Source: Escherichia coli (lineage in GTDB: Bacteria > Pseudomonadota > Gammaproteobacteria > Enterobacterales > Enterobacteriaceae). From it: DNA of 64,000 nucleotides. Numbering within the stretch: position 1 is the first letter of the stretch; every line of letters begins with the position of its first letter. Position numbers: made by a program. The stretch is from assembly GCF_029227855.1 (NCBI RefSeq), contig NZ_CP074356.1; one strand, 5' to 3'. Positions 54,101-60,100 of the stretch are shown one piece after another.

Positions 54101-57100
54101 CTTCTGGAATATCATTACGGCTGTCGATCCCCACTGTCATTCCGATCAGCGTCTGCTCAAACCCGGCACCCGCATCGGTGGTGACATTATTACGGGTGTT
54201 ATACGTCGCCCCCCAGACATTATTGTTGTGTGGACTCGCTTTCATTATGTTCAACCGCTCGCGAATACTGTTTAGCTCAGCATCAAATACCAACGGTAAT
54301 GTTGCTGCCATATTGAGTACAGCTGCCGTAGAAGGCGTGATGCGTTTCTCCGGAACGGGTGTCGGCGTTGGATCGGGAGTCGGGTCTGGATTTGGATTTG
54401 GGTTTGGGTTCGGGTTCGGGTTCGGGTTCGGGTTCGGGTTTGGATTTGGATTCGGATTTGGGTTTGGATTTGGGTTTGGGTTCGGATTTGGGTTGACATC
54501 ATTAGTCAGGTTCCAGTTGCTGTTGCCGTCGCTTTTCAGGACATACTCATAGGTCCCAAGATCAACGAAACCACCGGTATTGCCCAGCGTAAACGACGCA
54601 TCCCCTCCCCCTGTTTTCACCAGCGTCATCGCATCGTCAGACTGAGGGCTGACGCCGGTATCCTGAACAAAGATTTTAAAATTACCAGTGGCATTGTTGT
54701 TGACGACCAGTTGATCGCCCCGGGAGCCTGCAATGTTGGTATGCAGGTAGAAATTACCGCTGCCGGAAAGTTCACTGGTGGTCAGCGTATTGTAGATACC
54801 GTTAGTTGTGGCAGGCGCTGATAAATAAACATCACCGTCGTTGAGTAGCAAACTGTTTACTCTATATTCGCAGTTGCTGGTGCCTGCACAGGAATTATTG
54901 CTGTTAAGCCAGACACTGCCCCGGCTGGCAGCCGTCAGGTCGGCAAGCGTCGTATCAACGCCATTGCCGATAGTGAATGTCGCGCTATCGGTAATCCGGA
55001 TCGCCCCTTCGAGTTTAACTGGCGTAACATTATCCCGTGGCGTCATTAACGACAGGCTTCCTGTCGCGCCACTGACCGATGCATCCGCCAGCGTACCTGC
55101 GTAGACGATTGCTGTCCCGCCAGCAACCTGGAGATCTTCTGCCCGGGCCAGAGCCTGAAACTCATCTTTTGACCGCCCAAGGGTATATTGCCCACCAGAG
55201 TTAACCTTTGTGGCGGAGTCCTGACCCAGGTTTTGCATTGCACCACCCTTGTCAACCGTGGAGTCACGGGCTTCGGTACCTGCTAATACCAATAAATTAC
55301 CGCCATTTTCCAGCAACATATTGGTCGCTAAATTGCTGGCAATGGAAAAGGTGCCGTACTGGTGCGTACCGCTGATTTCAATACCGTTAGCCGTGCTCGT
55401 CTGGAGAGCGGCACCGCTGTTCTGGACGATATCTGTCGCTTTGCCATTATCGTTGACTGTCAGCGTTCCGCCTTCATTGATCGTTGTTTTTATTGCCTCT
55501 CCGTTAGCTGAAACTGTTTGTATTCCGCCGTCGTTAATTGTTGTCTCATTTGCCACACCCTCGACGATTTGTTCACCGCCAGTGAGCGTCGTGCCTGTCG
55601 CAGTGGCTTTTGTTTTGACGATCTCCCGACCGCCCGCATTGACCTGTGTTTTGGCGGAAGTGGTGTCTGACTCCACGGTTAACACGCCGCCATTTGTCAG
55701 CAGGATATTGTTCGCCGCACCCTGCTCGATGCTGAACGCGACGCCATCAGCGCGTGTCCCTGTGACCCGCGTCGCCCTGGTGGTTGCAACCAACGCGCCC
55801 TGACTACTCTGCTGTATCCCCGTTGCGCTGCCTTTCTCCCGCACATCGAGTATGCCGCCATTGTTAAGTCTGGTGGTATATGCTACGGCCTCCTCGTGGA
55901 CAATCAGCTTACCGCCAGCATCAACGATGGTATCTACCGCCGAGGTTTGAGCTACGACCGTCAGTTGGCCGGTATTTTCCAGCACAACATGCTCAGCCCT
56001 GCCTCCGGTAATAGTGAAGTGAGATGACCTCTGGTATCCATCAATATCAGTCCCCGCGCCCGTGTTGGCAACTAAAGCACTCCCCGTGTCCAGGTAAACC
56101 CCATGTGCGATACCGCCGGTATCGACAATCAGCGTGCCTCCGGCACGAATATTGCTGCCAGTTGCCGTACCTCCTTTCTCAACAACCTGCTTGCTCCCGG
56201 AAGAGATATTTGTTGTGTCAGCTTTCCCGCCGCTCTTGATATTTTGCGTGCCACTGTTGATATTAGTTCCCGTAGCAATACCATGATTATAAATATTCTG
56301 TGTACCGCCATTAATTATGGTATTAGTCGCGTTCCCGGCAACATCCATGGCCCCGCCGTTATCTATTCGGGTCGCATCAGCTTTAGCATTCGTTAAAACT
56401 GACATTGTTCCTTTATCGTTAATTATCGTCCCTGTAGAAATTCCTCCCTCACTAATTGTCTGGCTGCCACCGTTAATGACTGTATTATTAGCCTGCCCCT
56501 GATAAGAGCCATGACCAGATACCTCTTGATGTCCACCAGTATCAATAACACTTCCATTAGAAATCCCGCCATATACCTCCTGATTGCCGTGATTGATGAT
56601 ATGAGCATTATTTGTTGTACCTCGTTCATCTACTCTTTGGCTGCCGTCTACAGTCTCATCATTTACAACGCCAATAACATTAGAAGTGAAGGCCGTCATC
56701 CCAGGCGGGGCATATATCATGGCAGCTATCAATAAGGAAAGTACTGAGCGGTGAAAATAATAGCGACTGATTCTGTTCATAAATTTCATCCTCTGAAAAA
56801 TGAATACTGAGTACTGAGTAGCGTCTAAGTAACCTAAGCTCGGCTGCAACATCAGCCCGCAGGCACCAGACCAGGGGATTCATCCTGAAGAGACAGCGCA
56901 GGTGTATTGTGTTCACCGCTCACCAAAGACATCATGATGAAATGATGATATCCCGCATAATAAAGAGGCATTTTTTAAACGCAATGCGCTGAAGTGTAGT
57001 TGGATAAAAAATCACTCTTTTCAGATAATACTGTCGTACGCTTATCTTTCGACAATGAGGCCGTCGGCAAAATAAAATGACTAATGTAATCGTTGCTGAT

Positions 57101-60100
57101 GAATATCTTCTGCTCACATAAAAATCACACAATAATATTGATAAATCAGATTATCTTACCTTTACAACATTGCGTTAACAGTCAATGACACTTCTTGAAT
57201 AAAAATATTGTCAATCAATGAGTTATTCCTCATTTAAGATTATTCTCATTCACGTAAAAAACATAATTCCTATCATCACAGCCACGCTCATTTTGAATTA
57301 TCTGAATAATAGCGAGCGTTCTTTAGTTAAGCAGATCTTAATTGAAGACGAAATTATTGTGTGTGCAACTTACTTAATACCGGACATCTAAGTTGAAGAA
57401 AAAAATACTTGCCTTCGGGCTTATCTCAGCATTGTTCTGCTCCACGCCAGCGATGGCGGATATGAACCGCACCACGAAAGGTGCATTGCTAGGCGCAGGC
57501 GTTGGTTTACTTACTGGCAATGGTGTTAATGGCGTACTGAAAGGTGCAGCTGTTGGCGCTGGTGTTGGTGCAGTAACAGAAAAAGGCCGCGACGGTAAAA
57601 ATGCGCGTAAAGGTGCAAAAGTGGGTGCCGCCGTTGGTGCTGTCACTGGCGTTCTGACCGGCAATGGCCTCGAAGGGGCGATTAAAGGTGCCGTGATTGG
57701 CGGTACGGGTGGTGCAATTCTGGGTAAAATGAAATAAGGAATGATGATGAAAAAATTTGCTTTACTGGCGGGTCTGTTTGTTTTCGCACCAATGACCTGG
57801 GCGCAGGACTACAATATTAAAAACGGTTTGCCGTCAGAAACCTATATTACTTGCGCAGAAGCCAACGAAATGGCAAAAACTGACAGCGCACAGGTTGCAG
57901 AAATTGTTGCGGTAATGGGTAATGCCAGCGTTGCCAGCCGTGATTTAAAAATTGAGCAATTTCCGGAACTAAGCGCCAAAGTGGTAGAAAAACTGAATCA
58001 GGTTTGCGCTAAAGACCCGCAAATGCTGTTGATCACGGCAATTGATGACACTATGCGTGCTATCGGCAAAAAATAATATTTAATATGTTACCGCGTCGAT
58101 GAATTCGACGCGGTATTTTAGCTAACGGGGATCAGAACTTATATTTCAGGCCCACCATCACTGCGGTGTCATTGTAGCCATTATCACCCAGCTGCACGCC
58201 CACATTACCCCAGACGCTGGCCGCCGGATTCAGATTGCCATTTACGCCAAGTTTAATTTCCCCCAGATTACGCGCCCCGTCTTGTTCAACTTTCACACCG
58301 TTCATTGAGACAGCAAAATCTTTACTGTTATGGATCCAGTTCATTTCAACAAAAGGTTCAAAGTCGTCACCGTGCGGACCGCTGTTTTTCTCCTGAGTAC
58401 GAATAAAGGTACGGAAGCCGAGTCGGGTCTGGATGTTGTTATTTGCGTCATTCTCAATACGTGAGCCATTGGCTTCCGTGTGCGCATTATGATCGACGCC
58501 CATCCAGATAGCCTGTGCCTGTGGCTGGAAGATCCACGTATATTTCGCCGCTTCCAGACCAAAGGATTTATTCAGGGCAAAACCGTAACCCGCTTCCAGC
58601 GAGACGGTTGCACCTTTCGCGCTATAGGATTCATAGGCTAACTCATCCCCTTTCACCGAGTTTTTAAACCAGCTATATTGCGCCCAGGCGTCAATGTATG
58701 CGCCTTTTTTACTGATGTCATCGGCAAACCAGGTGGCATACAGCCCTGCGCTATAGCCTCTGACACTCCCTTTCGAACGATAATCCGACACGCTGGAATG
58801 AGTTGAGTTGTAGTCGCGGGCATAACCAGCCATCACTCCCAAACGCCAACTGTCACTGTCGGTAAAACCACCGGTTAACAGATCGGCCCCTAACTGTGAG
58901 ACGTAGCGATGCGAGGTCGTTCTCAACTGTCCGTTGCTGTCACGCCAGGCATTATGCCCGCCAATTTGACGTAGCCAAAGTCGGCTTGAACGCTCCTGTT
59001 CAGTTACAGGATCGATGTAACGCGTTTCACCTGCACGGTCGTTCAGACGCATAACAAAAAGAGTGTTAGCGGCTGCCAGGTTGGCGACGTAACTTCCAGC
59101 TTCGGGGCGCAGAACGGGGGTAGGCGTTTCTGTTGATTCTGAATTTCCCTCTGAGCTGTTATCCTCCTCATTCACTGACTGATAACTTGTCAAATACCAG
59201 TTTTTGCCTTGTTGTTTTAGTTGATATTCGAAAGCTCCAGCTGCAATCCTTGCATCACCTTGTCTGAAGGCATCTGCTGGAGATTCATCGCCATTCACAG
59301 TTATGAGTTCGATCCCATTTAGCGTGGCCGCGCCGCTTCCTCCAGCATTTTTCACATAGACGGTAGTTGAACCCGAAGTATTGCCCTCAACAATAAGTCT
59401 GTCAGTAGCCGATTTATCATCACCTAATACGGTGCGGGTATTAAGCTGACCATTATTACCGACATAATTACCTTTTACGGTTAACGTTTTTCCCTGGGTA
59501 AATGTTTGACCATCATCATACGAAAGATTGATAATACTGTCTGAATTAGTCAGATGGATAACAACGGAGTCATCTTTCATATTCCAGATTGTGTTTTCTG
59601 AAAGCTTCAGTGTAGTTGTGCCGCTAACGAGTTTAGTCGCTCCATTTAGAGTAGAGTCGGACGAAATTATGTTTAAGCCACCTCCAGTATTATTAACCAG
59701 AATATTATTACCAGGCGTGATAATACTTCGATTAAGGATGCTTACATCCGTTGTAGTTTTGTTAACATCAATACTATCCAAAGCACTTGAAAGTTCGACA
59801 CTTGATAGTGCTATTTTGGCTTGAGAATCGATATTTGATGCATCAATTGATATTCCTTTATCTTGTTCTGATACCGCGGTGACATTGGAAAAAAATAACT
59901 CTCCACCATTGTATATTTTTGCAATGGGGGCTTTAGTGCCTTTTGTTGTAATAGAACTATTTTTTATATCAATGTTACCTTGTCGAATAGCAACTGCATA
60001 ACTTCCATGCTCCCCGGTTTCAAGTGCCACATAATCTAAATTAATATATGCTTTTTCCCCATTAGCATAAGCACCATAGCTATTAGTGCCATTAGTTGTT

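Follow-up and report, generated by a model that had tools for sequence, protein, structure and literature searches.

Organization of the autotransporter-ymgG spacer

The DNA analysed here is a 64,000-nucleotide (nt) stretch of Escherichia coli contig NZ_CP074356.1 (assembly GCF_029227855.1), hereafter the window, and this work concerns the spacer within it that separates an autotransporter gene from ymgG and ymgD. The genes of the locus follow the order minCDE - autotransporter - ymgG/ymgD - ycgH, with the autotransporter on the minus strand and ymgG and ymgD on the plus strand, in agreement with the divergent arrangement described in an earlier reading of the sequence (the original prediction), which had proposed an AT-rich control region for surface-protein genes at 56853-57392. 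The autotransporter is named "YpjA/EhaD-like" in RefSeq and contains AIDA repeats, pertactin and beta-barrel domains. RefSeq annotation was borrowed from a strain 100% identical across the 1.2 kb compared; for the 801 bases around the interval, identity was 100% to strain JNEC-KY178 and, over what K-12 retains of them, 99% to K-12. Window coordinates were converted to those of MG1655 by the relation MG1655 coordinate = 1280381 - window coordinate. The spacer and the two genes on its right are as follows.

56781-57392, no strand assigned: spacer of 612 bp from the autotransporter start codon (56780, minus strand) to the ymgG TTG (57393), delimited from RefSeq, the list of open reading frames (ORFs) and the sequence
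57393-57737, plus strand: ymgG, glycine-zipper envelope protein with a TTG start (GTG in E. albertii), Pfam Gly-zipper_YMGG
57741-58076, plus strand: ymgD, Pfam YmgD

The left edge of the predicted interval, 56853, proved to be an artefact of starting the longest ORF at its first ATG; RefSeq places the autotransporter start at 56780, where the protein begins MNRISRYYF... and GAGGA precedes the start. The two AT-rich strings quoted in the prediction were found in the sequence at 57132-57160 and 57201-57222. With a mean G+C content (GC) of 49.3% for the window, and percentiles taken against same-length stretches of it, the 540 bp between 56853 and 57392 had 36.1% GC (2nd percentile among all 540-bp windows). 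The description of these 540 bp as strongly AT-rich was apt for 57000-57392 (31.8% GC), where the AT-richness is concentrated and where 57100-57399 reached 30.3% (0.2nd percentile among 300-bp windows), but not for the left part, since 56853-57000 had 47% GC, near the window mean. No intrinsic terminators were detected in 56600-57600, and a scan of 52500-59000 on both strands with the Rfam 15 covariance models gave no match at E <= 1.

Two features of the region had been overlooked, namely that its left half is duplicated along with the autotransporter as an upstream module and that three small ORFs are annotated within it, a 39-amino-acid ORF (56852-56971, minus strand), ymgJ (56932-57117, minus strand) and ymgI (57218-57391, plus strand).

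The ymgG promoter and a candidate RcsB box

A start site and two regulator-binding sites upstream of ymgG were already on record, as was the membership of ymgG and ymgD in the Rcs regulon; the core promoter and the RcsB box below were located in this work. The outcome that would have refuted the original prediction, a region lacking both start sites and bound regulators, is contradicted by the recorded start site and the two Reg-Seq sites.

57284 (MG1655 1223097, reverse strand), plus strand: ymgG-ymgD transcription start site, from the RegulonDB site obtained by rapid amplification of cDNA ends (RACE) and used by Reg-Seq (PMC7567609)
57249-57276, plus strand: ymgG core promoter, with -35 TTCACG (57249-57254), a 16-nt spacer and -10 TATCAT (57271-57276), from a consensus scan
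57228-57253, plus strand: Reg-Seq activator site (-56 to -31), factor not named by its authors (supplement of PMC7567609)
57173-57187, plus strand: Reg-Seq repressor site (-111 to -97), sequence cgttaacagtcaatg, factor not named (supplement of PMC7567609)
57235-57248, plus strand: candidate RcsB box TAAGATTATTCTCA, centred at -42.5 (-49 to -36), matching TN(G/A)GAN4TC(T/C)NA with 0 mismatches

The start site falls within the annotated ymgI. The -10 hexamer, located by a scan independent of the RACE datum, ends 8 nt before it and reads TATCAT or TATTAT in all species aligned, the orthologous loci having been collected via YmgD. Transcription of ymgG-ymgD would thus be initiated at 57284 by a sigma-70 promoter (TTCACG / TATCAT).

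The sequence TAAGATTATTCTCA is the sole strict match in the 64-kb window to the consensus of the RcsB homodimer, TN(G/A)GAN4TC(T/C)NA (PMC7913699). It lies inside the Reg-Seq activator site and abuts the -35 hexamer, and it was fully matched in seven of the eight Escherichia sequences, with one mismatch in the eighth. The box is part of the 66-nt stretch between the ymgI ATG and the start site, and this stretch differed between species at 15-23 of its 66 positions (23-35%). The weight of the assignment rests on the position of the box, -49 to -36 as in rprA, and not on the number of matches. Expression data point in the same direction: ymgD was upregulated 5.5-fold upon RcsB overproduction (PMC2731931), and inhibition of LolCDE raised ymgG and ymgD 19-27-fold together with rcsA, osmB, ivy and the capsule genes (PMC5105897). 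From motif, position and conservation we infer that the activator at -56 to -31 is RcsB, an assignment that this work adds to the published Reg-Seq site. The core of the original prediction, a non-coding control region between divergent envelope genes with RcsB-dependent regulation, is therefore upheld by the transcriptomes and by the strict box at -49 to -36. Its link between the ymg genes and biofilm and acid stress pertains to ymgA/ariR(ymgB)/ymgC, a separate operon, and is not known to extend to ymgG/ymgD.

In the mechanism that we propose, phosphorylated RcsB would bind the box at -49 to -36, abutting the -35 hexamer in an rprA-like geometry, and activate the ymgG promoter, so that envelope damage would act through the Rcs phosphorelay to switch on two small envelope proteins, YmgG and YmgD. 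An additional repressor site at -111 to -97 would belong to the same right-hand module. A divergent promoter as the cause of this repressor signal was ruled out, its -10 hexamer lying outside the 160-bp Reg-Seq construct.

When one mismatch was allowed, RcsB-like boxes were seen at 57235 (the strict match), at 57292 (+9 to +22, invariant in all Escherichia) and at 57415, inside ymgG. Three of the 40 such matches of the 64 kb thus fall within 194 bp (57235-57428).

A conserved leader upstream of ymgG

Downstream of the start site, the alignment of the orthologous loci revealed a conserved leader with three predicted helices and one candidate small-RNA site.

57284-57392, plus strand: 5' leader of the ymgG mRNA, conserved, 109 nt (species alignment and consensus fold)
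57284-57289/57314-57319, plus strand: predicted leader helix 1, beginning exactly at +1, with two compensatory pairs (consensus fold)
57320-57330/57338-57348, plus strand: predicted leader helix 2, with a variable loop (consensus fold)
57366-57372/57389-57395, plus strand: predicted leader helix 3, CAACUUA with UAAGUUG, including the TTG start (consensus fold)
57374-57381, plus strand: candidate OmrA/OmrB pairing site UUAAUACC for Omr nt 7-14, just 5' of the start codon (windowed duplex scan)

Between species the leader differed at 6-12 positions per 108 nt, compared with 33-37 per 345 nt in the ymgG coding sequence. The latter showed conservation of the coding type (variable columns 10/3/48 by codon position, synonymous to non-synonymous changes up to 32:1), whereas the leader had no third-position bias. 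Because the ymgI frame is broken in relatives in which the nucleotides are nearly invariant, and because no ORF in any frame is intact across all species, the conserved 109 nt are, judging from the alignment, a non-coding leader. Upstream ORFs within the leader were rejected, none being intact in all species; among them were a TTG ORF of 32 codons that shares the frame of ymgI and a GTG ORF of 11 codons with a TGA overlapping the ymgG TTG. The leader is under strong constraint at the nucleotide level and has a weak ribosome-binding region and a TTG start.

Part of this constraint may reflect regulation by OmrA and OmrB, Hfq-dependent small RNAs that would repress ymgG translation at the leader. 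Both are reported to repress a Ptet ymgG-mScarlet fusion that comprises the 5' untranslated region (5'UTR) and early coding region, and they do so through the conserved Omr 5' end; Omr nt 3-6 stay unpaired according to the same work, the text of which gives no exact ymgG site (bioRxiv 10.64898/2026.06.26.734639). Our windowed duplex scan returned three candidate sites of -8.7 to -12.6 kcal/mol. The octamer UUAAUACC at 57374-57381 is invariant in all species aligned and compatible with the unpaired Omr nt 3-6, and we tentatively assign the Omr site to it; the alternatives at 57409-57420 and 57444-57458, both in the coding region, scored equally well or better.

A direct repeat was also noted, ATCTTAATTGAAGA at 57335-57348 and ATCTAAGTTGAAGA at 57386-57399, by which the 3' arm of helix 2 resembles the start-codon region of ymgG. 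It is conceivable, on the predicted fold, that the 5' arm of helix 2 (57319-57330) could pair with either copy.

A duplicated upstream module on the autotransporter side

The left part of the spacer has a different origin, and its features lie on the autotransporter strand.

56781-57171, minus strand: upstream and leader module of the autotransporter, duplicated 5' of the paralogous ypjA/EhaD gene (megablast, blastn and alignment A2)
56851-56953, minus strand: near-invariant core of the autotransporter leader, about 100 nt (alignments A2 and A4)
57025-57052, minus strand: candidate sigma-70 autotransporter promoter, TCGAAA-16-TATTAT (consensus match only)
57150-57178, minus strand: second, weaker candidate autotransporter promoter, TTAACG-17-GATAAT (consensus match only)

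The module 56781-57171 shares about 88-90% identity with the sequence upstream of ypjA. The spacer is a composite in which a module native to ymgG adjoins a duplicated leader of the autotransporter, an anatomy that had not been described in the original prediction. We propose that 56781-57171 corresponds to the long upstream region and leader of an AIDA-type autotransporter, duplicated with its gene at the ypjA locus, and that about 57116-57392 would be native to ymgG-ymgD. In E. whittamii, Escherichia sp. E1V33 and SCPM-O-B-8794 the autotransporter is absent between minE and ymgG, and the sequence becomes homologous to the window again at 57114-57116. In these three (our loci L007, L008 and L009, at about 2200-2378) the place of the gene is taken by about 175 bp of unrelated sequence. 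The distal piece 57116-57171, which is found upstream of ypjA too, is still kept in all three, and its retention suggests that the autotransporter gene was lost rather than gained there.

The core 56851-56953 was conserved even in E. albertii, in which the flanks were far more diverged, with the exception of two short variable islands. A 25-nt piece of it was unique in the window, with 0 occurrences expected by chance. Expression of the autotransporter is most probably influenced in cis by this core. A hairpin at 56962-56977/57005-57020 was discarded as a candidate element, since the ypjA paralogue, on a by-eye reading of alignment A2, does not preserve it.

The ypjA paralogue preserves the -35 hexamer of the promoter candidate at 57025-57052 and, in part, its -10 (TATTTC, TATTGT). 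Both there and in E. albertii this candidate is better preserved than the one at 57150-57178, whose -10 E. albertii has lost by deletion and the paralogue has in altered form. We regard 57025-57052 as the more plausible autotransporter promoter. A search of plasmids with the autotransporter leader retrieved only E. coli records resembling chromosomal pieces and was uninformative.

In K-12 and most E. coli a 3,042-bp deletion (53775-56816) has left a 344-bp ycgI pseudogene remnant; of 30 hits taken at even spacing, only about 3 still had the 5' end of the autotransporter. At 56805-56818 the autotransporter 5'UTR also has seven nucleotides duplicated in tandem (TACTCAG TACTCAG, read on the strand of the autotransporter). 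No other aligned copy has this duplication, which adjoins the K-12 deletion junction at 56817. Within the autotransporter gene, a perfect (Asn-Pro)x18 repeat (54387-54494) lies between the pertactin and beta-barrel domains and coincides with a sharp spike in GC skew and AT skew. Beyond ymgD, the ycgH autotransporter ORF (58132-60795) encodes 887 amino acids with a terminal stop only; for the strain identical around the interval, RefSeq reports an "internal stop" and classes the gene as a pseudogene.

Small annotated open reading frames

The three ORFs annotated within the spacer were evaluated for signs of coding.

57218-57391, plus strand: ymgI, 57 amino acids, judged not protein-coding; overlies the RcsB box, core promoter, start site and leader (RefSeq and K-12 annotation)
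56932-57117, minus strand: ymgJ, 61 amino acids, GTG start, doubtful gene in the autotransporter leader (annotated in K-12)
56852-56971, minus strand: ORF of 39 amino acids ("hypothetical protein" or "ATPase"), judged not protein-coding (RefSeq annotation)

No coding signature was detected in any of the three, an addition to their current annotation. In E. whittamii, Escherichia sp. E1V33 and SCPM-O-B-8794 the ymgI frame is interrupted by a stop at codon 3 and again by later ones; E. whittamii has a frameshifting 1-nt deletion besides, and E. albertii lacks the ATG. None of the four non-coli Escherichia thus has an undamaged ymgI frame. Its variable columns numbered 18/21/19 by codon position, and non-synonymous changes were far above synonymous ones, unlike in ymgG. 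The ymgI ATG at 57218 lies 66 nt upstream of the sole recorded start site and is not preceded by a purine-rich Shine-Dalgarno sequence. ymgJ is frameshifted in strain AR_0058, has indels in E. albertii and is absent from the annotation at the ypjA paralogue.

For the 39-amino-acid ORF the variable columns numbered 11/11/9 by codon position, and the ypjA-locus copies differed by 0 synonymous and 6 non-synonymous substitutions. One copy (L014) has an in-frame stop, another (L005) has GTG at the position of the ATG, and E. albertii has lost this start codon. Protein searches with this ORF gave hits limited to Escherichia/Shigella. Many NCBI records call it "ATPase", a name that has no domain or family support and looks like a spurious one passed on between records. 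Neither Pfam nor NCBIfam had a model matching ymgI, ymgJ or the 39-amino-acid ORF. From these alignments the three are probably not genes but chance reading frames in AT-rich regulatory DNA.

Weighing the alternatives

Taken together, we favour, with a probability of roughly 75%, the reading of the interval as an ordinary non-coding control region, a composite of two modules that differ in origin. Several observations weigh against it or against its parts. Strict RcsB matches numbered 1 against 2.7 expected per 64 kb, so that the motif count alone is not significant; no footprint, electrophoretic mobility shift or chromatin immunoprecipitation (ChIP) result for RcsB at the ymgG promoter was found; and Reg-Seq left the activator at -56 to -31 without a name. 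The autotransporter promoters are consensus matches only, of which 5 were found in the region against 2.9 expected. In the ymgG leader, the E. albertii version of helix 3 lacks two of its pairs, the fold was no more stable than that of shuffled sequences (z -0.18, -0.41), and the candidate Omr site covers just about 10 of the 109 conserved nucleotides. ymgI was intact in all E. coli sequences examined, and a young, lineage-specific YmgI peptide in E. coli proper is formally still admissible.

Among the competing explanations, it is possible, though on balance we think it unlikely, that the interval is mainly a silencing platform for H-NS, with or without IHF, where AT-rich curved DNA nucleates filaments that repress both the autotransporter and ymgG, a role that would be compatible with an RcsB promoter. 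Cryptic autotransporter genes of E. coli are often silenced by H-NS. The 30-32% GC over 57000-57392, among the lowest in the window, would suit such filaments, and a table from genomic SELEX (systematic evolution of ligands by exponential enrichment) carries the flag "HNS" for the ymgF-ycgH spacer nearby (PMC3946193). However, the high-affinity H-NS motif occurred at chance level (72 observed, 73 expected), and the spacer is not listed in the ChIP supplements of PMC4720273. The IHF core WATCAANNNNTTR has one match in the interval, at 57213-57225; it is lost in E. albertii, Reg-Seq reported no site there (-71 to -59), and the 6 core matches of the window, against 3.3 expected, were reached in 11 of 100 shuffles. 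What speaks for the H-NS/IHF part of the original prediction is base composition alone.

More doubtful is the proposal that both conserved blocks, the 109-nt ymgG leader and the roughly 100-nt core common to the two YpjA-type autotransporter leaders, represent a new kind of cis-regulatory RNA element. The ymgG leader might, for instance, act as a switch in which 57319-57330 pairs either with the decoy at 57337-57348 or with the look-alike start region at 57386-57399, and ymgI, ymgJ and the 39-amino-acid ORF would then have to leave the K-12 gene list. Conservation above that of the adjacent coding sequence, the mimicry of the start region by the repeat ATCTTAATTGAAGA / ATCTAAGTTGAAGA, the two compensatory pairs of helix 1 and the invariance of the autotransporter core, which extends from E. 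coli as far as E. albertii and holds for the ypjA paralogue too, are what would be expected of such elements. They are set against fold energies no better than those of shuffles, a covariation term of only -0.07 for the core 56851-56953, and an Rfam scan that matched neither block (E <= 1). The comparison comprised only 7-8 closely related sequences, and protein-binding DNA could explain the conservation equally well.

A further alternative, which we consider improbable, is that the activator at -56 to -31 is another factor or an RcsB heterodimer (with RcsA, BglJ, GadE or MatA) instead of the RcsB homodimer, in which case the Rcs induction of ymgGD would be indirect. In addition to the missing name, the RcsB consensus is degenerate, the 26-bp footprint exceeds the 14-bp box, and relaxed boxes occur elsewhere too, at +9 to +22 and in coding sequence. 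The box offset identical to that of rprA, the preservation of the box across species and the strong and consistent induction alongside the Rcs regulon argue for the homodimer. Finally, that ymgI, ymgJ or the 39-amino-acid ORF are real small proteins and the interval coding rather than regulatory is very improbable: their annotation in K-12 and RefSeq, the ymgI frame intact throughout E. coli with its stop codon abutting the ymgG start, and the length of the 39-amino-acid ORF kept in most copies and at the ypjA paralogue are outweighed by the broken ymgI frames in all four non-coli Escherichia where the nucleotides are conserved, the lack of codon-position bias, the excess of non-synonymous changes, the ymgI ATG without Shine-Dalgarno sequence upstream of the only recorded start site, the ymgJ frameshift, the in-frame stop in one copy of the 39-amino-acid ORF, the failure of any leader ORF to survive across species and the lack of a family model for any of the three.

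With the composite control region as the preferred reading, the gain is mostly one of annotation hygiene, and the understanding of such regions is unchanged. Tying a Reg-Seq activator site to RcsB would provide a testable direct promoter for a strongly induced, uncharacterised pair of envelope proteins of the Rcs regulon. That ymgI and ymgJ of K-12 and the widely propagated 39-amino-acid "ATPase" are probably not genes matters for the lists of "hypothetical proteins" that are still mined. Two strongly conserved leaders are also flagged, the function of which is explained in part only, by OmrA/OmrB.

Comparison with known systems

The ymgG-ymgD pair of Edwardsiella hoshinae has an upstream palindrome, TTTAGGTAATAATCCTAAA (locus L011, 2467-2487), resembling an RcsB or RcsAB box with one extra spacer base. 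The half-site spacing of this palindrome (TAGGTAATAATCCTA) is one base above the consensus, and the leader has no similarity to the Escherichia leader, which makes it weak support for RcsB control.

The upstream region of ypjA/EhaD is the closest relative of the left module, the 88-90% identity including the invariant core and the 39-amino-acid ORF. It differs past the equivalent of 57171, where a recombinase fragment takes the place of ymgG. The sole regulatory datum found for the spacer upstream of ypjA was a SELEX peak of sigma-S RNA polymerase (PMC5493296).

As with the OmrA/OmrB targets ompT, cirA and csgD, repression of ymgG proceeds through the conserved Omr 5' end and acts on the 5'UTR and early coding region, and ymgG has an invariant complementary octamer beside its start codon. 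In contrast to those targets, ymgGD was not consistently recovered in published interactome sets (bioRxiv 10.64898/2026.06.26.734639), its pairing site is a predicted one, and most of its conserved leader lies outside any predicted Omr site.

Like YmgG, OsmB is a small glycine-zipper envelope protein (in its case a lipoprotein) induced through Rcs, and osmB tops the same lists of RcsB-induced genes as ymgG/ymgD. It is induced osmotically as well, and in E. coli it has no strict box within about 470 nt upstream, which makes its promoter architecture unlike that of ymgG; the sole candidate, read by eye, was a one-mismatch sequence, TAAGATGATTCCTG, far 5' of the ATG.

The closest parallel to the ymgG promoter is that of rprA in E. 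coli MG1655. The latter encodes a small RNA, and its RcsB dependence has been shown experimentally, whereas for ymgG the evidence consists of transcriptomes and an unassigned Reg-Seq activator site; ymgG has, in addition, a conserved 109-nt leader and an upstream repressor site. Both genes belong to the Rcs envelope-stress regulon, and both have a strict TN(G/A)GAN4TC(T/C)NA box at exactly -49 to -36, abutting the -35 region.

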